Assembly (NCBI GenBank): GCA_965213705.1
Contig: OZ243913.1
Coordinates: 4,000,001-4,064,000 of the forward strand
DNA from: Trueperaceae bacterium
GTDB taxonomy: Bacteria > Deinococcota > Deinococci > Deinococcales > Trueperaceae
DNA length: 64,000 nt
Reading direction: 5' to 3'
A program made the position numbers and the translations under genes. Shown here one piece after another: positions 5,979 through 26,885 of this stretch (position 1 is its first letter; every line of letters starts with the position of its first letter). Below the pieces are notes generated by a model. That model ran no database searches and was not told where the DNA came from. It saw only the letters and a list, made by a program, of their open reading frames with translations.

Positions 5979-6155
5979 GAGATAGTGTACCTTATTATTT
6001 AAGGTAGCAACAGGAGCCGTGACGAACGAGGCTTCGGAGGTGAACGGACTAGGTAGGGAAGCACTCGAGAGTGAGCCGGCAAGGCGATTTTCGGGCGCGG
6101 GTGCCTCTGGTACGAAGGCTATACTGGGGTTAGCAAGTGACCCAAGGAGACACGT

Positions 6156-19391: not shown

Positions 19392-20042
19392 TACCCTTTC
19401 CGTTTCATTCCCTCAGAATTAAGTGCGGGCAGAGCGAGAAGAAATACGGACTAGCGACAAGGGAGCGAACAACTCTTCCAAGGAGAGCTGTAGTATAAGA
19501 ATCCGTACAACACGGTACCGCCCCGACTGTCGGGGGCACGACTCGGCAACAAAGCAGTGCTCACAACGAGGCGTCCAGCATCTCGCCACACAAGTTTTCG
19601 GTGTAAAGCTCGTAGCACGGAGTCTGAACAAATTCGCCGTAAATAAAACCCAAGCACTCGCGAGACGGTGTTGAAAAGACGCCGAGTCGTCGTCGAGATG
19701 TTGCTGAGACGGTGCAAAAAAGCGCTCGGTGCTTGGGACGTCGAAGTGATGGACTCGTGGACGAAGTAGTGCGTGATGTTTAAGCCCAAAAACAGTATAC
19801 ATGAAAACTCTGACTTTTTTCTTAATCCTCGTTCAACGTCCGAAAACGCGACAAAAAAAGCCAAAAATTACCCTTCAAAGCTCGAGACGGCCTCCAAACA
19901 AGGCGGCTCCCACAGTTGCCCTGCACACATTCGACTTTGAGGCTTTTACTGCGCTACGCTCGCCCACCGAGAACCGGGTAAGAAACCAAAAAACTGAGCT
20001 TGTAGCCCCGCCCCAGTCCCACTCAGGCGGCTTCCTCGCCGG

Positions 20043-20708
20043 TCACGAGGTCCCGACGAGGTCCCGTAGCGCCTTGCGTTGGCGGCGGTGCCCGACGTGG
20101 CCGACGACCACACCCTGCACCGTCACCTCTGTAAGCGGCAGCCGCAAGGGTGCGTAGGCCGCGTTCTCAGCGACGAGGAGCGCGTCACCGCCCTGTTGGT
20201 AATAGCGTTTCAGGGTCGCCGTTTCCTCGTCCGGCAAAAACGCGACGACGACCTCGCCGTCGAGCACTTCTCGGGTTGGGTGGACGACGACGTAGTCGCC
20301 GGGTAGGTAGCCCGCGCCCAACATCGAGTCGCCGTCTACTTTAAGCAAAAAGTCCCCCTCGTGCAGTGGCAACAGGTCGCTCAAGCGGTCGGTGTAGCTC
20401 TCTACTTGCTCGGCGGCGTGGAGCGGTTGCCCCGCCGCGATACAGCCGAGAACGGCAAAACCGGGTTTTTCCAGCAGCGCGCTCGCCTTGGGCGTCAGCA
20501 CGGGCGTCAGGGCTTGGCGGTCCTGCGCTTTGAAGTTCACGTAACCCAGGTCGCGCAACCGCCACACGTGCTCGCGCGTGTTTTGGCGGCTTATGGCGAT
20601 GCGTTTGGACAGCTCGGTCACCGTGGGCGGCCGGCGAAGCGCTTCGCACAGGGCGGCGACCGCCTGCAGCACTTCTTTCTGACGTTCGGTCAGCTCCGAC
20701 TTGGTCAT
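20043..20708 (-). CDS. lexA: LexA-family repressor
   Basis: LTERQKEVL...PPTVTEL wHTH; Ala-Gly cleavage site IAAGQP; catalytic GDSM (Ser) and TLKR (Lys). Confidence 0.92.
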   Translation of the reverse strand: MTKSELTERQKEVLQAVAALCEALRRPPTVTELSKRIAISRQNTREHVWRLRDLGYVNFKAQDRQALTPVLTPKASALLEKPGFAVLGCIAAGQPLHAAEQVESYTDRLSDLLPLHEGDFLLKVDGDSMLGAGYLPGDYVVVHPTREVLDGEVVVAFLPDEETATLKRYYQQGGDALLVAENAAYAPLRLPLTEVTVQGVVVGHVGHRRQRKALRDLVGTS

Positions 20709-20718
20709 CGCCCTCATC

Positions 20719-20730
20719 ATGTCACGTGCC
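20719..20730. promoter_or_regulatory. Candidate operator ATGTCACGTGCC over the lexA -10 region
   Basis: 11/12 identical to the motif at 26838-26849; overlaps TG-a-CATGAT on the minus strand. Confidence 0.55.
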
Positions 20731-20819
20731 GCTCGTTGTGTTCGTACTGAAACCCTCAAAACCTATCCCGGGAGAGCGGTAACCCGTATGAACACGTCTC
20801 GTCCGCCTTATGGGGGTGC

Positions 20820-21296
20820 TCAGCCCTGCCCAAGCAGTTCCTCGAGCTGAAACGCGTGCCGAACCGGGTGCATAGCGGCGTGCTCGAGCATGACGTCGAT
20901 GCAGAGGTGATGCGTTCCCGCGTTGGCAACGTACTCGGGGTGGTAAAACTTTTCTTCTTCAACGTCGGCAAGGGGCAAGCGCCAGCGCTCGAGCAGGTGC
21001 TCCAAATAAGCATCTGCCTCCTTGCCGACGACGGCGGAATCCGGGGCAGGCTTAATCTCAGGGTCAGGTAGATTGAGTTGCTTGCACGTCCAAGTCATGT
21101 AGCCTCGTGCAGCGCCCAGAACATGGCTCAGCAAGGTTTCCAGAGACGCATAGTTGCCATCCTCTGTTTGCGGCAGTTTGACTTGGGCGGCTTTCGCCTG
21201 TTTCCAGACACTTAGACACTCGCGCATATGTTTTTCGTGCAAGAGCACCAACGCTCTTGCACCCCGATGTTGGTAGTCGCTCAGTTCTTTAGCCAC
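20820..21296 (-). CDS. DinB family protein
   Basis: LLSHV...MLEHAAMHPVRH His pattern. Confidence 0.75.
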   Translation of the reverse strand: MAKELSDYQHRGARALVLLHEKHMRECLSVWKQAKAAQVKLPQTEDGNYASLETLLSHVLGAARGYMTWTCKQLNLPDPEIKPAPDSAVVGKEADAYLEHLLERWRLPLADVEEEKFYHPEYVANAGTHHLCIDVMLEHAAMHPVRHAFQLEELLGQG

Positions 21297-21299
21297 AAC

Positions 21300-21764
21300 T
21301 TACCTCTCGTAAAATTTGGGCAGCTCGAGGCCTAAGAGTCTCAGGTAAACGAACCCTTGGCTCCGGTGGTGAATCTCGTTGTCGATGACGTAGAAAATCC
21401 GCTCGAGGTTGCTCGCAGTCATGCCCCAAGCGTCGGTTTCCACAAGCTGGAACTTGGCCGTATCCAAGCTTGCGTAAATTTCTTTCGTCCGCTCCTGCAC
21501 CTCGCCGAAGGCGTGCAGCAACTCGGCTTTGGTCTCTAGGCCGTCGTAGGTGGGTTCCCAAGTCCATTCACCCGTAGCGAGACCCTGAAACACCGCCGTT
21601 TCCACATTGAGGAGTTCCCATAGCAGTTCGGCAAAGGTGCGCATTCCCTCGACTTTATAGCTGGCGAGTTGGTCTTGGGGATACGCTTCGAGGGTGCGCA
21701 GGGTCAGGCGGCGGTGGCCTTGCCAGTGCTCAAGTAGTTTTTCTTTGCTTAGCAATTCGCTCAT
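21300..21764 (-). CDS. DinB family protein
   Basis: HWQGHRRLT...IDNEIHHRSQGFVYLR. Confidence 0.92.
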   Translation of the reverse strand: MSELLSKEKLLEHWQGHRRLTLRTLEAYPQDQLASYKVEGMRTFAELLWELLNVETAVFQGLATGEWTWEPTYDGLETKAELLHAFGEVQERTKEIYASLDTAKFQLVETDAWGMTASNLERIFYVIDNEIHHRSQGFVYLRLLGLELPKFYER

Positions 21765-21797
21765 ATTTTTCTCTCGTCCTTGCTTCTTCTATTTTCT

Positions 21798-22265
21798 TTA
21801 ACGCTCGTAGAATGCAGGTGGCTCAATGCCAAGTAGCCTCAAATAAACATAGCCTTGTGCGCGGTGATGGATTTCGTTATCAATCATGTAAAGTAGACGT
21901 TCACGATTAGGTTTCTCTGCCCCACCAGCATCTATTTCCACTGCCTCGATCCTTTCAGGTGTCAACTGTGTCCACACTGCTCGAGTTGTCTGCGCCGTCT
22001 CTTTAAAGACTGTGAGAAGAGCTTCTTTATTAAAAACGCTTTTGTATTTAGGCTGCCATACCCAATCTCCAGATAGAACACTGTGGAGAAAGTTCACTTC
22101 TATTTCGAGAATCTCAACCATCATTTTGCCGAATGACCGCATCGGCACGACAGTGTAGTCAAAGAGTTTGGCTTCAGGAAATGCCTCAACGGTACGAAGC
22201 GTTAAACGGCGGTGGCCTTGCCAGTGCTCGAGTAGCGCTTCAGGGGTCAACAACGATTGGCTCAT
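21798..22265 (-). CDS. DinB family protein (paralog of 21300-21764)
   Basis: HWQGHRRLT...IDNEIHHRAQGYVYLRLLGIEPP. Confidence 0.92.
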   Translation of the reverse strand: MSQSLLTPEALLEHWQGHRRLTLRTVEAFPEAKLFDYTVVPMRSFGKMMVEILEIEVNFLHSVLSGDWVWQPKYKSVFNKEALLTVFKETAQTTRAVWTQLTPERIEAVEIDAGGAEKPNRERLLYMIDNEIHHRAQGYVYLRLLGIEPPAFYER

Positions 22266-22325
22266 AACCTAGTCTCCTTTTACGAATGTATAAACCTCAT
22301 CATTTTTCTCTGGACGGCGTCATGG

Positions 22326-22802
22326 TTATTCGTTTTTCCACGGCCCCCACATAACGTCGTCACCGGGCAGCGGGAAGCCGGAAGTTTTCAGCGCCAGCAA
22401 CACCTGCCCCCGGTGGTGCGCGTCGTGGACCATCATGTGGATGAGGTAGGCGTCTAAGCTCGTATGGGGTAAGTCCCCTGTATCATCAGCGGTTTCGGCG
22501 GCGTCCAAGACAGCGTCGGCGGTTTGCTGGGCGACTTCGCGGATGCGCCCTAAGTCGGTTTCGGCAACAAAGCCCTCAGCCTCCTCGTCATAAAGGTTAG
22601 GCAGCGGCTCGAGTCTCGCTTTGGCAAACTTTGTGCCAAAATGCTTGGGCGTACCCACGAACTCCGCGATGTGCTGCGCCACGGTCCAACCACCCCCAGG
22701 GGTCTGCGCCGTCACCATGTCGGGGGTGAGGTGCTCTAAGAGCGTCCTATTGATGCGGGTATTGGCTTGCCAGGCTTTTTTGACGGATGGACTCAAAGAC
22801 AT
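22326..22802 (-). CDS. DinB family protein
   Basis: WTVAQHI...HMMVHDAHHRGQ. Confidence 0.9.
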   Translation of the reverse strand: MSLSPSVKKAWQANTRINRTLLEHLTPDMVTAQTPGGGWTVAQHIAEFVGTPKHFGTKFAKARLEPLPNLYDEEAEGFVAETDLGRIREVAQQTADAVLDAAETADDTGDLPHTSLDAYLIHMMVHDAHHRGQVLLALKTSGFPLPGDDVMWGPWKNE

Positions 22803-22951
22803 GATGTTCCTTTCTTAATGGTGGCGAAAATGGATTCGGACGCCTTGATTGGCGTGAGTCTCCTTGACTGAACCGCGCTGATTTGTGAGGGATGTGCCGA
22901 CCAGTGGCGGCCTCAGTCTAACAGATGAACGGGCATCACCTCCAGAATGTC

Positions 22952-23512
22952 TCAATAAACTGTGCATAGGCGAAATTCCCTTTGCGCCGCCTGAAACGCC
23001 TCTCGAGTCATCGCGTAGTAAGCGCCGCCGTTCGCGTCGAAATGCTCATTTTCGGTACGCTTCAGACCGGCTTTTTCAATGACGCGCAAGGACGCACTAT
23101 TGGAAAGTAGCGCGCCCGCGCCGATGCGCTCGAGCTTCAAGTGGGTAAAGCCGTACCACAAACACGCCTGCATGATTTCCGTTGCCAAGCCAAGCCCCCA
23201 GTACGCTTTGGCGAGGATATAGGCGACCTCCGCTGGAGCCACAAACCCGCCCATGCCGATGAGCACGGCGTCCGCCTTATGCACGACCGCCCACAAACCC
23301 CACGGTTGTTGCGCCCACTGAGTCCGGTACTCGCCCAGCGTTTGGACCACCTGTTCCCTTGTCTGAACGCCGTCACTGATGAACGCCATCACGTCGGGGT
23401 CGCCATAAATTCCAGCGAGGTCGTCCGCGTCTTCCGGTCTGAACTGGCGCAGGTACAAGCGGGGTGTTTCAAGGTCTCGAGCTTCTGGGTGAAGCGAGCG
23501 TTTTTCTCTCAT
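22952..23512 (-). CDS. GNAT N-acetyltransferase (RimJ/RimL type)
   Basis: ETPRLYLR, YWGLGLATE, NSASLRVIEKAG. Confidence 0.9.
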   Translation of the reverse strand: MREKRSLHPEARDLETPRLYLRQFRPEDADDLAGIYGDPDVMAFISDGVQTREQVVQTLGEYRTQWAQQPWGLWAVVHKADAVLIGMGGFVAPAEVAYILAKAYWGLGLATEIMQACLWYGFTHLKLERIGAGALLSNSASLRVIEKAGLKRTENEHFDANGGAYYAMTREAFQAAQREFRLCTVY

Positions 23513-23514
23513 AG

Positions 23515-23997
23515 CTAAGATGTTCCAACCGCCCCGACCATCTGCCGAATCGCCCCCAAATGGTAAGCCGCGTGCGGCGTAAAAGCCAGCATCACCGTCA
23601 GCATCTGCTCGTCGGCAATCTCCTCTTGAGCTTGAATCGCACGGTGAAGCGTTTCGTACTCGCTTTTGAGGTCGGCGCGGAGCTCTTCCCAGGCGGCAGC
23701 GTCCACGGTTTGCACCGTCCAGCTTTCCGCCCAGTTCAGCTCCGGGGTTTCGCCCCGCGTGAAAGCGTTGGCGAGCGCCAGACTCCAGTGCACATGTTCG
23801 GTGTGCGCGGCGATGCTCGAGCCACTCGGCTGGCGGCTCGAGGCCTCCTCAGCACTCACGTTCTCGAGCGTTCCTAAAAGCCCGGAGCCCGGTTCGTTGT
23901 TGATAAACCAGGTGTAGGCGTGGTTGGGGCCGGTGTAGGCTTCGCTGAACAGTTCAGCAAGGATGGTAGTCAAGGTTTCATTGGGGATACTGGTCAT
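23515..23997 (-). CDS. DinB family protein
   Basis: SIAAHTEHV...PHAAYHLGAIRQ. Confidence 0.88.
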   Translation of the reverse strand: MTSIPNETLTTILAELFSEAYTGPNHAYTWFINNEPGSGLLGTLENVSAEEASSRQPSGSSIAAHTEHVHWSLALANAFTRGETPELNWAESWTVQTVDAAAWEELRADLKSEYETLHRAIQAQEEIADEQMLTVMLAFTPHAAYHLGAIRQMVGAVGTS

Positions 23998-24085
23998 GAT
24001 TGATCCTCAGCAAAGGTTATGAGAGGGTCGTTCTCGAGTAAGCTTTTCTCAAAAACAGCTTGCATAGCTCATTCCTTTCAGCGGG

Positions 24086-24457
24086 TCAACCAACCTGAGT
24101 GGCGAGCCACCAGGTATTGCCTGCCGGGTCCTTGACCCCGCCCCGGCGGTCGGGTTCGTCTTTCTGAACAGGCTCCTGCACGGAGACACCCCCCGCTTTC
24201 AGTGCGCGCTGATAGGCAGCGTCTACGTCGGGCACGTAAACGTGCAGCCAGACCGGAAAAGGTTGGTCGGTATCGGCAATCATGACGACGGTGTCGTCTA
24301 TCTGAACTTCGGCGTGCATGACGGAACCGTCCGAATTGTGGAAGCGCCGTAGCACCTCAGCACCCAACGCCTCAGTCAGAAAGTCAATAACGTGTTGCGC
24401 CCCGTTCGCCATGATGTAAACCGAGACGCTGGCGTAGCCTTGCGGTTTATAGGTCAT
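24086..24457 (-). CDS. VOC family protein (PhnB-like)
   Basis: VMHAEVQIDD...YVPDVDAAYQRAL...RRGGVKDPAGNTW. Confidence 0.92.
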   Translation of the reverse strand: MTYKPQGYASVSVYIMANGAQHVIDFLTEALGAEVLRRFHNSDGSVMHAEVQIDDTVVMIADTDQPFPVWLHVYVPDVDAAYQRALKAGGVSVQEPVQKDEPDRRGGVKDPAGNTWWLATQVG

Positions 24458-24465
24458 AAATTCTC

Positions 24466-24831
24466 CTATCCTGCTTTGAAATGTGGGTTTTGAATGATAC
24501 CGAGCGCGTTGCCGAACAGGTCTTCGACCAGCGCCGTTTTGATACCGTCACCGACATCCTCAACTTGATTGATGGCGGTTGCGCCCAGCTCGAGCAACCG
24601 TTTGAAAACCGCTTCGATGTCGTCTACTCGCCAGTACGGAACGCTCCCGCCCAAACCTTGCAAACTCTCGTTACGGTCGGGTTGCAGGCCGAGTTCGTAA
24701 CCCCCAACATCGAAGCCGACGTAAAAGGCTTCGTCAAAGTAAGGTTGGACGCCCAACACCTCGCTGTACCAGGCTTTAGCTTTTTCAATGTCGGGGGCGT
24801 GATAAATGGCGGTGACTAACTGCTTGAACAT
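24466..24831 (-). CDS. VOC / glyoxalase-bleomycin resistance family protein
   Basis: DIEKAKAWYSEVLG...YWRVDDI...DLFGNALGI. Confidence 0.92.
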   Translation of the reverse strand: MFKQLVTAIYHAPDIEKAKAWYSEVLGVQPYFDEAFYVGFDVGGYELGLQPDRNESLQGLGGSVPYWRVDDIEAVFKRLLELGATAINQVEDVGDGIKTALVEDLFGNALGIIQNPHFKAG

Positions 24832-24840
24832 ACGCTTTCC

Positions 24841-25461
24841 TTAGTGGGCCTTCTCAACGGGTTGCCTGAGCACGGTTCGCAGGTTCTCGGGCGCGGCTCT
24901 GCGAGGGTCGCCCAAATAGATTTCGTGGTGCTTGCCGCGCAGGGTGTACCCCTGTTGCTCGACAAAGTCGTGCAGCTTGGCAATCGTCGGCCCTTCGTCG
25001 TCGTAAGAACCTAGGTGCATAATTTGCGCGGCCAAACCTTCGTGATAGCTTTCAAACCTGAGCTTAGCCAACGCGACGGGATTTTTCTTTTTTTCGACTT
25101 CGGCTTTTGTTTCGTCAAACAGTTTTTCTGTGACCTCTTCGGGCTGCATTATCAGCATCGTCCAGTGCCAAGCGTCTTTGTCTCGAGCGCTCGTAAAGGT
25201 ACGCATATCGTCCGCCCACCACAGGCCCTCGAGCGGCATCACGACATAATCGACCCCCGCAGTCTTTTTGACCTTGAACTTGAGCGCGTAAGCCACCGCG
25301 TAAAGCGCCTCGACCGCCTCCGCGTAACGCAGTGAGGTGTTGGGGTTGCCTTGACCGTCAATCATCAAAAAGTTCATAGCGAGAACCCCGACTGTGACGA
25401 CTTCTTTGGCTGAAGGCTTGTAAAGATGCTTCAGTTCTTTTTTGTAATCAACTTTCGTCAC
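24841..25461 (-). CDS. GyrI-like small-molecule-binding protein
   Basis: DYKKELKHLY...PLEGLWW...HLGSYDDE...HHEIYLGDPRR. Confidence 0.9.
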   Translation of the reverse strand: MTKVDYKKELKHLYKPSAKEVVTVGVLAMNFLMIDGQGNPNTSLRYAEAVEALYAVAYALKFKVKKTAGVDYVVMPLEGLWWADDMRTFTSARDKDAWHWTMLIMQPEEVTEKLFDETKAEVEKKKNPVALAKLRFESYHEGLAAQIMHLGSYDDEGPTIAKLHDFVEQQGYTLRGKHHEIYLGDPRRAAPENLRTVLRQPVEKAH

Positions 25462-25865
25462 GCGTTTTTCTCTTCGCCGAGGCTGTACTCAAAGGTGTAG
25501 CCGTGCTCTCCCCCACTCACTTCTATCGTCATCTGCCCCTTCAGCCCCACTAGTTCCCCCGTACCCGAATCCGGCACGACGGTGATGTTCTGCTCGCCCT
25601 CGCCGCGGGTCATGGTGCTCGAGTGTTGCAAGACGAACGTTCCCTGCCGTCCGTGCAGCGTGCCCGTGAATTTTTCAATAGCGACGTAACCGGCAGAATT
25701 TTCAACGCTCGTTCTGGCGCTCAGCATCTCGCCTTTACTCGTGCCCTCCAAGTCGCCGTGAAACTGCTTGGCGATGGACAGCCTGCCAAGGCTCGCGTCC
25801 GCTTCGGGGTCGGACAGAACTTGTGGTTTCAGGTCGACTTCGAAAGTGCCGCTGGCTTTCGTCAT
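25458..25865 (-). CDS. DUF3224 family protein
   Basis: KQFHGDLEGTS...GYVAIE.FTGTLHGRQGTFVLQH...VVPDSGTGEL. Confidence 0.9.
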   Translation of the reverse strand: MTKASGTFEVDLKPQVLSDPEADASLGRLSIAKQFHGDLEGTSKGEMLSARTSVENSAGYVAIEKFTGTLHGRQGTFVLQHSSTMTRGEGEQNITVVPDSGTGELVGLKGQMTIEVSGGEHGYTFEYSLGEEKNA

Positions 25866-25902
25866 ATGTTCCTCTTTCTGAAAGGGGCTCGAGCCCAAGC
25901 GT

Positions 25903-26319
25903 TTACGCTTTTTTTGAACGCATCGCCTCGAGGTGGGCTATCGTTTGGTCGCTCGCAAGTTTTTTGTAGTTCGTGTCTTCGACGGCGACCAGGGCGAGCC
26001 TTCCCTCCTCGTCGCTGTGAATCCCCCAGCCGTAGCGTTTGGGCAGCGGCGACGCCCGCATACACGGCTGACCTTTTGAGAAGAATCTTTCTCGCCCGGT
26101 TGCACGGTCCTTTTCGGGAATACCCTGTCTTTCTGCGTACACGGCGAACAGCACGTCGTCGGAGGTGTAGCGGTAGGGATGCTCGAGAATCATGCTGTAC
26201 TGAAGGCTCGCAACTGTTTTCTTATCACCTTTTTGTGGAGGAACTTCCGCCACCGTTACCGGACAATCTTCCGCAACCTCGATAAACGTGTTGGCGTAAT
26301 TGGTGGTGTGATGTTTCAT
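25903..26319 (-). CDS. DUF6157 family protein
   Basis: HTTNYANTFIEVAEDCP...FFSKGQPCMRASPLPKRYGWGIH. Confidence 0.82.
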   Translation of the reverse strand: MKHHTTNYANTFIEVAEDCPVTVAEVPPQKGDKKTVASLQYSMILEHPYRYTSDDVLFAVYAERQGIPEKDRATGRERFFSKGQPCMRASPLPKRYGWGIHSDEEGRLALVAVEDTNYKKLASDQTIAHLEAMRSKKA

Positions 26320-26353
26320 TTCCCCTCACTTTCAAGTGTTGCCAAGCTCGAGC

Positions 26354-26764
26354 CTACGCTCGCCGCACATCGAAAAATTGCCCGTAAGCAAAAAAGTGGG
26401 GCGGTGGGAGAGCCGCCCCGGGAAGGGATTGGGACACCGAACGTAAACCGACTTCGCCGCCTTTGGTATCTTCGAAGACGGCGATAAAGCCGTTTTCGCC
26501 GATGCTCGTTTTTGCCTGCAGCACTGCGCCGCCTGCCGCCTCGACGCGGTCCTGGACGATTTGTAAGTCGTCACCACCGTTCAGGTGAGGAAGCGTACCG
26601 TTGTGTCTCAGCGTGTAGTCTGCGCCCTGCACGAGTGCGCCGCCGACGCCGTCGGGAGTAGGGAAAACTGCCATTTTGTGCCCGTCGAGCATGGGATAGT
26701 CCTCGAGCTTGGCGCTCTCCATGCCTTTCACGGGAACGTCGAACCCGTTGAGGACACTTTTCAT
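26354..26764 (-). pseudogene. VOC family gene, probably degenerate
   Basis: GVGGALVQG...RVEAAGG.VL..KTSIGENGFIAVFEDT; lacks the usual FY..VLG segment and runs past the expected C-terminus. Confidence 0.6.
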
Positions 26765-26837
26765 ACACGTCTCCCTGGTTGACGTCTCCTCAGTTGACCT
26801 CTCCTCGGTGTGGCTCCCCAGCGGCGTGCGGGTGGTT

Positions 26838-26885
26838 ATGTCACGTGACACCCTTAGTATATACAGGTAGCTCGAAATTTGACAA
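26838..26885 (-). promoter_or_regulatory. Promoter and palindromic operator of the DinB/VOC cluster
   Basis: TTGTCA (26885-26880), 18 nt, TATACT (26861-26856), then the perfect palindrome TGTCACGTGACA (26839-26850). Confidence 0.6.

Follow-up and report, generated by a model that had tools for sequence, protein, structure and literature searches.

What controls a run of twelve small genes that leads straight into a gene for a LexA repressor? The question arises on the minus strand of a 64,000-nt stretch of DNA (the window; positions 4000001–4064000 of contig C1), which was taken from the 4.25-Mb, single-contig genome of a Trueperaceae bacterium, here called G000. Twelve co-oriented open reading frames (ORFs) extend from position 26764 to 20820 and are followed by lexA, with gaps of -4 to 149 nt. 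The initial annotation of this DNA proposed that the linked LexA controls the cluster as a dedicated genotoxin-detoxification regulon, through a new operator shared by the cluster promoter and the lexA promoter. We put at about three in four the probability that the palindrome TGTCACGTGACA at the cluster promoter serves as operator for the LexA from the end of the cluster, a protein that would repress this promoter until damage-triggered, RecA-dependent self-cleavage frees the detoxification genes. As judged from sequence, the pairing of this LexA with this operator is highly probable, the operator is likely to cover most of the cluster, and genotoxin detoxification as its main role stands at even odds.

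The lexA product contains the DNA-binding domain (PF01726, 29.8 bits against a cut-off of 23.7) and the S24 domain (PF00717, 89 bits), and it matches the LexA proteins of Escherichia coli and Pseudomonas aeruginosa with E values of 1e-21 to 4e-23. Aligned to E. coli LexA, the cleavage site A92-G93 and the dyad S128/K167 are invariant in 20 orthologs. The ORF map, Pfam and these residues thus bear out the description of 12 co-oriented genes running into a lexA gene with intact cleavage machinery. The recognition helix, SRQNTREH, is referred to below as the RQN helix.

Only one sigma-70-like promoter, TTGTCA-18-TATACT (26885–26856), was found in 7.9 kb, and the perfect palindrome that had been noted just downstream of its -10 hexamer lies over the predicted transcription start. 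TGTCACGTGACA occurs nowhere else in the 4.25-Mb genome as an exact copy (0.15 expected). In a genome scan with a matrix built from sites upstream of lexA genes, it ranks first of 4.25 M positions, with 21.4 bits. The window motif served as seed in choosing the training sites of this matrix, and unseeded Gibbs sampling, described below, is the clean test. Palindromy alone is not rare, as the window contains 19 perfect 12-bp palindromes. The sequence ATGTC-N4-GACAT differs from CTGT-N8-ACAG, as had been stated; the Gram-positive LexA box is GAAC-N4-GTTC. Strong sites in G000 are limited to the cluster promoter and one unconserved site, and no match to TGTCA-N2-TGACA with up to two mismatches is present in either of the two recA loci, which fits the idea of a dedicated regulon. 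The second-ranked site, TGTCAGATGACA (C1:770928–770939, 20.1 bits), lies after the sequence TATAAC, with genes for an aminoglycoside 3-N-acetyltransferase-family protein and a DUF4910 protein downstream, and is a possible second target; the region around it was not found in four relatives.

Among 363 Deinococcales genomes, 86 have homologs of this lexA at E ≤ 1e-25: 72 of 125 genomes of a Deinococcus-like family (f2), 8 of 23 of family f3, none of families f4 and f5, and 6 of 128 Trueperaceae. A perfect TGTCACGTGACA is situated upstream of 6 of 36 lexA loci at a protein identity of only 41–43%, and three of these six head dnaE2 cassettes. When 27 regions upstream of non-Trueperaceae lexA genes (3 near-duplicates having been dropped) were put through Gibbs sampling without a seed, 8 of 8 runs returned ATGTCA[C/G][C/G]TGACAT, with an information content of 14.3–15.8 compared with 9.1–9.3 for shuffled sequences. 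Palindrome counting in the same regions gave GTCA-N2-TGAC in 12 of 27. Alignment-based scans of metagenomes and genomes yielded mostly distant LexAs, and only L041, L042 and L121–L123 were useful.

The motif covaries with the recognition helix. Among 43 held-out loci outside the training set, a site of at least 15 bits precedes 9 of the 10 lexA genes with an RQN helix and 4 of the 33 with other helices, and was found in 9 of 1720 random windows and for 0 of 13 family-wide LexAs (see below); the held-out set includes some near-duplicates, its genomes are kin, and no p-value is claimed. Eleven loci without alignment were dropped from the helix tree. Other recognition helices pair with other palindromes. 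Upstream of lexA1 from Deinococcus radiodurans (L334) and Deide_1p01870 from Deinococcus deserti (L335), CTTGACCCGTGACAAG and CTTGACACGAATCAAA, respectively, lie over the -35 and are candidate operators of these two studied LexAs, and CCTG-N8-CACG marks the lexA of another cassette group. Older work may have described a CTTG-N8-CAAG site for D. radiodurans LexA1; if this holds, the site of the sister clade is already known, but not the 12-bp box or this regulon.

In relatives, DinB genes are also found directly upstream of an RQN lexA in the genomes G001, G327 and G330 and on one metagenome contig. The layout of a -35 hexamer, 17–18 nt, a -10 hexamer, 5 nt and TGTCACGTGACA, embedded in unrelated flanks, is present once each in G000, G001 and G327 and twice in G330, giving five promoters, and all four genomes contain DinB genes beside an RQN lexA. 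In all five promoters TGTCACGTGACA lies in the untranslated leader, where 3.5e-6 copies are expected per 100 nt. The boxed promoter of G327 leads into more than 20 co-oriented genes, including many DinB, VOC, GyrI-like and GNAT genes and one gene for an AlkZ-like crosslink glycosylase (for YcaQ, see PMC7367128). In G330 a boxed promoter leads via a small ORF into a DinB-like gene. G330 is an unpublished genome that contributes two promoters, the DinB-lexA synteny and a WYL-DinB pair, and the case stands on G000, G001 and G327 alone. The gene content of the cluster varies even within a genus. In G327 and G330, the first gene to follow the boxed promoter is an ORF of about 70 residues that has no Pfam match (L287:15250–15480, L288, L289:3489–3710); this ORF is absent from G000 and G001.

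G000 encodes two more LexAs, which are of a family-wide type with the helix HYVSLKQH. The upstream regions of family-wide lexA genes contain CCT-N9-AGG at 20 of 23 loci, and the full 19-bp box, TACCTTA-N5-TAAGGTA, is present in 33 of 41 Trueperaceae genomes compared with 1 for the control. In G000 this box precedes one recA gene of two, a gene judged uvrA-like by eye, an SRAP gene, both lexA paralogs and small unknown genes. Ten sites with at most one mismatch were counted, and one perfect site lies in the window at 5988–6006. The recA genes are at C1:103216–104004 and C1:3349181–3349969, and only the first has the box directly upstream. With the 19-bp box, the family-wide LexAs seem to control an SOS regulon of the classical recA/uvrA kind, and the premise, carried over from Deinococcus, that no such regulon is run needs amending for Trueperaceae.

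The two boxes exclude each other at the head of the cluster. Homologs of the first cluster gene, which encodes a VOC protein, are present in 20 of 128 genomes. Among their 27 promoters, the 12-bp box (at least 20 bits) occurs in exactly three, the cluster heads of G000, G001 and G327, all of which have an RQN LexA; the 19-bp box with at most one mismatch occurs in seven, and both boxes in none. The sister of the G001 gene, in G004, is 85% identical (support 0.963) and shares the downstream gene order and a hairpin; it has a perfect 19-bp box, and its cluster ends in a truncated dinB. No RQN lexA was found in the single-contig, 96% complete G004 genome. The sister of the G327 gene, in G328 (support 0.976), has a perfect 19-bp box as well. 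This looks like an operator swap between two LexA systems at the cluster head, and the cluster looks to be SOS-controlled under either of them. The presence of a LexA-type box in both states supports damage induction and makes the linked LexA the partner of the 12-bp box.

The proposal that a second copy of the motif next to lexA forms a shared operator did not hold up. This site matches the palindrome itself at 10 of 12 positions and reaches 11 of 12 only in a shifted register. Genome-wide it takes rank 369, with a score lower than that of any training site, and the two matches with at most two mismatches in the window equal the chance level (mean 1.94). Its good half-site doubles as the extended -10, TG-n-CATGAT at 20716–20724, which is 7 nt before the lexA ATG; in the 92%-identical lexA ortholog of G001 this -10 is kept and the left half of the site is lost. 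The RQN clade has a palindrome at its own lexA promoter, and this gene has a half-site only. Footprinting of orthologous promoters, which the initial annotation had suggested, gave a divided answer, with the motif kept at the cluster heads of G001, G327 and G330 and a strong site directly upstream of 0 of 5 close Trueperaceae lexA genes. Control of the cluster by the linked LexA through a new box is well supported by footprinting and co-occurrence, and not by the lexA-proximal copy.

Several observations weigh against control of the whole cluster by the linked LexA. The lack of a strong own site at the close lexA genes makes autoregulation dependent on read-through. A hairpin followed by a T-run, overlooked initially, lies after the first gene in G000, G001 and G004, and no strong internal 12-bp site was found within the cluster, so that the operator might reach only the now-degenerate first gene. 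G327 has the cluster head on one contig (C270) and the lexA end on another (C314). No RQN lexA was found in G328, a weak negative for an assembly in 830 contigs. Most dinB homologs in Trueperaceae are solitary, and 18 of 20 regions have no box before the cluster-gene homolog; damage control is therefore not a general property of these genes. Kinship of the genomes means that the counts overstate independence. In D. radiodurans, the radiation-induced DinB-superfamily gene dr0053 is reported to need RecA and to be independent of lexA1 and lexA2 (PMC4338110).

The hairpin leads to the alternative that the LexA-bound operator controls the VOC gene 1 alone, with the DinB genes and lexA served by other promoters. 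This gene has a 10-residue in-frame deletion and has lost the ancestral stop, now CAA at 26429–26431, and it is probably a decaying VOC gene; as to an assembly artefact, identical letters are present in contigs of runs X1 and X2, which are probably from the source sample and so not independent. lexA has its own conserved extended -10, and the gaps of 88, 149 and 111 nt are roomy enough for promoters. However, the search of the 7.9 kb gave just the one sigma-70-like promoter, the hairpin has a z-score of only -1.0 in G000 (-2.7 in G001), and no such hairpin was seen after the G327 ortholog. The G330 promoter that leads into a DinB-like gene also speaks against a one-gene operator, and the close lexA genes keep the RQN helix without a strong site of their own, which is easiest explained by repression from the cluster head. 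We consider control of the first gene alone unlikely. Control by a WYL-domain activator of the SiwR/YafY type or another regulator, with lexA as a passenger, is less likely still. WYL-DinB/VOC pairs are known (SiwR, PMC10693628), G000 has five WYL matches, some DinB orthologs in G330 are divergent to a WYL gene, which also counts against the linked LexA, and WYL-linked VOC paralogs contain the same pentamer, arranged as TGACA-N6-TGTCA. In that arrangement the half-sites are inverted and lie upstream of the -10, like the site of SiwR, whereas the cluster site is downstream of the -10. The nearest WYL match in G000 is about 100 kb from the cluster, and in lineages that lack the cluster the 12-bp box still goes with the LexA helix, while it is gone from the cluster head where the RQN lexA is missing. 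Control by a WYL factor, which the initial annotation had named as the finding that would overturn it, is disfavored by this distance and site geometry. The VOC paralogs, which mostly lie downstream of a WYL gene, have CTACTGACA-N6-TGTCACT in common, with a degenerate 19-bp box behind it; the former is a candidate WYL activator site, and perhaps these genes are under dual WYL/LexA control.

Binding of the palindrome by a family-wide LexA paralog of G000 is most improbable. At C1:1549055–1550988, one of these paralogs is divergent to an SRAP gene and has a DinB gene downstream; in addition to the 19-bp box, a 12.5-bit look-alike of the 12-bp box, TGTCTCTTGACA, follows its -10, and cross-talk between the two LexA systems is possible at this locus. 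Against such binding, the paralogs have a different helix and a box of their own, and the closest 19-bp matches in the five cluster promoters differ at 5–6 positions. In 123 other Trueperaceae, with only family-wide paralogs, the exact 12-bp pattern is near its control, with 18 genomes compared with 12 for the reversed pattern. Equally improbable is a palindrome that arose by chance or as a by-product of promoter and start-codon sequence. Palindromes are frequent in the window, motif and start codon overlap in some lexA genes of Deinococcus, and some exact matches are TetR-linked or intragenic; yet an identical 12-mer stands at an identical offset in five promoters, amid unrelated flanks and always in the untranslated leader. 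CCT-N10-AGG or the 19-bp box over the cluster -10 was rejected (5–6 mismatches at best). Control by DdrO through the radiation/desiccation response motif looks doubtful, the right half of the site not fitting the consensus.

In the circuit that we propose for the linked LexA, a LexA dimer on the operator, which covers the predicted start site, would block RNA polymerase. DNA damage would cause RecA-dependent self-cleavage of LexA and release the predicted small-molecule detoxification genes, co-transcribed with lexA as the last gene, which would provide feedback; at its own leaderless promoter there is at most a weak half-site. From what is known of the families, the DinB thiol transferases may conjugate, the VOC and GyrI-like proteins bind or inactivate, and the GNAT protein acetylate DNA-damaging or reactive small molecules. 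In four Trueperaceae lineages the RQN LexA is attached to a variable DinB/VOC/GyrI/GNAT super-operon, and the circuit would operate apart from the family-wide LexA, for which recA and uvrA carry a distinct 19-bp box.

The features of the locus are collected in the table. Pfam assigns three DinB, two VOC, one GNAT, one GyrI-like, one DUF3224 and one DUF6157 protein to the cluster and has no match for the remaining three ORFs (20820–21296, 23515–23997 and 26354–26764). The initial count of five DinB and three VOC genes is thus supported by Pfam for three and two of them, and for the rest via orthologs. The C-terminal His motif and DinB fold likewise rest on Pfam for three of five DinB proteins, and for the other two on orthology, a single invariant His and a fold match of middling quality. 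For these two proteins, sequence searches of the PDB gave nothing significant. Foldseek gave no match at E ≤ 0.001. The model of the 20820–21296 product has middling best fold matches to DR0053 (Z 7.9, root-mean-square deviation 5.2, 122 residues aligned) and Sden_0562 (Z 7.8), and the other model, with a predicted local distance difference test score of 40, was too poor for a fold search. No Y-family polymerase or dnaE2 gene is present in the cluster, and the next gene downstream of lexA encodes a major facilitator superfamily (MFS) transporter on the opposite strand. From the MFS gene to the end of lexA, a gap of 650 nt (window 19400–19900) is AT-richer, contains short repeated stretches of GAGACGGTG/GTCGTCG and has no clear gene. 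An integron cassette array was rejected, as there is no intergenic repeat family and the gaps are mostly <60 nt.

Table. Features of the lexA-linked cluster (window positions) and of related sites elsewhere
Feature	Position	Strand	Remarks
lexA, 221 residues	20043..20708	-	PF01726 and PF00717; recognition helix SRQNTREH
Degenerate operator, good right half only	20720..20731	-	7.3 bits; overlaps extended -10
Probable DinB-superfamily protein	20820..21296	-	66% ortholog with borderline PF05163; middling fold match
DinB-family protein	21300..21764	-	PF05163 E 1e-20; 49% identity to upstream neighbour
DinB-family protein	21798..22265	-	PF05163 E 6e-22
DinB-family protein	22326..22802	-	PF05163 E 9e-16; PDB 3di5 E 6.5e-5
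GNAT acetyltransferase, RimJ/RimL type	22952..23512	-	PF13302 E 1e-29
Probable DinB-superfamily protein, weakest call	23515..23997	-	35% ortholog DinB_2 E 4e-4; C-terminal His in common
VOC/glyoxalase/bleomycin-resistance-family protein	24086..24457	-	PF00903 E 3e-11
VOC/glyoxalase/bleomycin-resistance-family protein	24466..24831	-	PF00903 E 5e-8
GyrI-like small-molecule-binding protein	24841..25461	-	PF06445 E 3e-15
DUF3224 protein	25458..25865	-	PF11528 E 2e-42
DUF6157 protein	25903..26319	-	PF19654 E 2e-62
First gene, VOC/glyoxalase-family	26354..26764	-	Orthologs match PF00903; probably degenerate
GC-rich hairpin (7 bp) and T-run, possible terminator/attenuator	26388..26419	-	Directly after gene 1
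Operator palindrome TGTCACGTGACA (predicted)	26839..26850	.	5 nt after -10, over predicted transcription start
-10 hexamer TATACT	26856..26861	-	18 nt after -35
-35 hexamer TTGTCA, cluster promoter	26880..26885	-	TTG(T/C)C(A/T/G), same spacing, in 5 promoters of 4 genomes
19-bp box sites	G000:C1:104088, 694719, 698529, 1544410, 1550242, 1572412, 1679037, 1954078, 2005535, 2605327, 3702203
CTACTGACA-type VOC paralogs	L431 (G000:C1:569,600 region), L428, L429, L433, L434, L436, L437, L439, L448, L449

Outside Trueperaceae, the surroundings of RQN-helix lexA genes are of other kinds. In 18 Deinococcaceae neighborhoods (the scan took in 59 of the 124 neighboring ORFs together with others, 54 being from these loci), the gene heads an imuY-dnaE2 mutagenesis cassette in 3 and lies beside tniB/tniQ in 7. 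Exact sites also occur before SRAP and tniB genes. In five Deinococcus-like genomes (L238, L244, L245, L247, L248), TGTCAGGTGACA is placed right after the -10 and over the GTG start of tniB, and in seven genomes (L263–L273) the RQN-helix lexA follows tniB-tniQ. These are apparently Tn7-like elements under their own LexA, and their transposition is possibly damage-inducible. In G038 of family f3 (L035:8024–9993), a copy of the 12-bp motif lies upstream both of lexA and of a Y-family polymerase gene convergent with it. Genome G019 was set aside as support: its lexA match is C-terminal only, its contamination is 9%, and three of its five exact sites are one repeated sequence, with none before a DinB gene. 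In the D. radiodurans plasmid record, an aadA gene (L334:96–1106; predicted at 99% identity), which is probably a laboratory marker, lies 1.4 kb upstream of lexA1.

D. radiodurans LexA1 (DR_A0344) and D. deserti Deide_1p01870, of the cassette lexA-imuY-imuB-C-dnaE2, belong to the same broad Deinococcota LexA group, with 38–42% identity (PMC6300522, PMC8072749). The likeness within this LexA-ArsR group lies in intact cleavage machinery and local operon control, and RQN relatives head the same kind of cassette (dnaE2). In contrast, the Deinococcus proteins form a separate subclade (FastTree support 0.909) whose helix reads TKQA(V/I)S and whose palindrome, of the CTTG-N8-CAAG type, lies over the -35, whereas TGTCA-N2-TGACA here follows the -10, and the target here is a detoxification-type super-operon without a polymerase, unlike the lexA-imuY-dnaE2 cassette. 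RecA-dependent cleavage is reported for LexA1, LexA2 and Deide_1p01870 (PMC6300522), and the genes under the D. radiodurans LexAs are stated to be unknown in reviews from 2018 and 2021 (PMC6300522, PMC8072749). LexA2 of Pseudomonas putida is similarly a second LexA with its own operator that controls its own operon beside a global LexA (PMC3901139); it leads a mutagenesis cassette, whereas lexA is last here and the cargo is DinB/VOC/GyrI/GNAT. Duplication and divergence have been modeled for LexA motifs (PMC8565304); beyond this model and P. putida LexA2, one and the same operon head is seen here, in sister genomes, under either LexA system.

DinB/YfiT proteins are described as thiol S-transferases (PMC6300522). 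Damage-induced genes of the DinB superfamily include dinB of Bacillus subtilis, an SOS gene with a LexA site, and D. radiodurans dr0053/ddrR (PMC4338110); these are single genes, in contrast to the 12- to 40-gene array here. In the SiwR-dinB operon of Mycobacterium smegmatis, a dedicated local regulator serves adjacent DinB genes and, in some species, glyoxalase-like genes under genotoxic stress; SiwR is a WYL activator that binds between -35 and -10, whereas the predicted site of the cleavable repressor here follows the -10 (PMC10693628). E. coli LexA (box CTGT-N8-ACAG, PMC8565304) has the same domain architecture, A-G site and Ser/Lys dyad and a palindrome on the core promoter, but its box differs and the regulon here excludes recA. 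TGTCA-N2-TGACA as a LexA site had no description among the papers listed in the literature searches. TGTCACGTGACA is probably a real LexA operator, previously undescribed as far as searched, of a dedicated SOS-type detoxification operon beside the global SOS response.

These results would provide a concrete operator for a LexA clade inside a widespread Deinococcales group, and candidate palindromes for D. radiodurans LexA1 and the D. deserti cassette LexA that can be examined by electrophoretic mobility shift assay in cultured strains. They point to an SOS switch that serves chemical detoxification, not repair or mutagenesis, and would give many orphan DinB, VOC and DUF proteins a shared functional context. 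The operator swaps in sister pairs would illustrate, in nature, how diverged LexA paralogs pass targets from one to the other, as has been proposed. As a broader and more tentative picture, Trueperaceae may run two orthogonal SOS circuits. The family-wide LexA would take care of repair, and a mobile Deinococcota LexA clade, carried about by Tn7-like elements and mutagenesis cassettes, would have been captured as the dedicated switch of a 12- to 40-gene super-operon that counters genotoxic antibiotics upon DNA damage. The operator would have been switched at least twice, with the arrival or loss of this lexA, and the helix-to-palindrome code may supply operators for the LexAs of Deinococcus.

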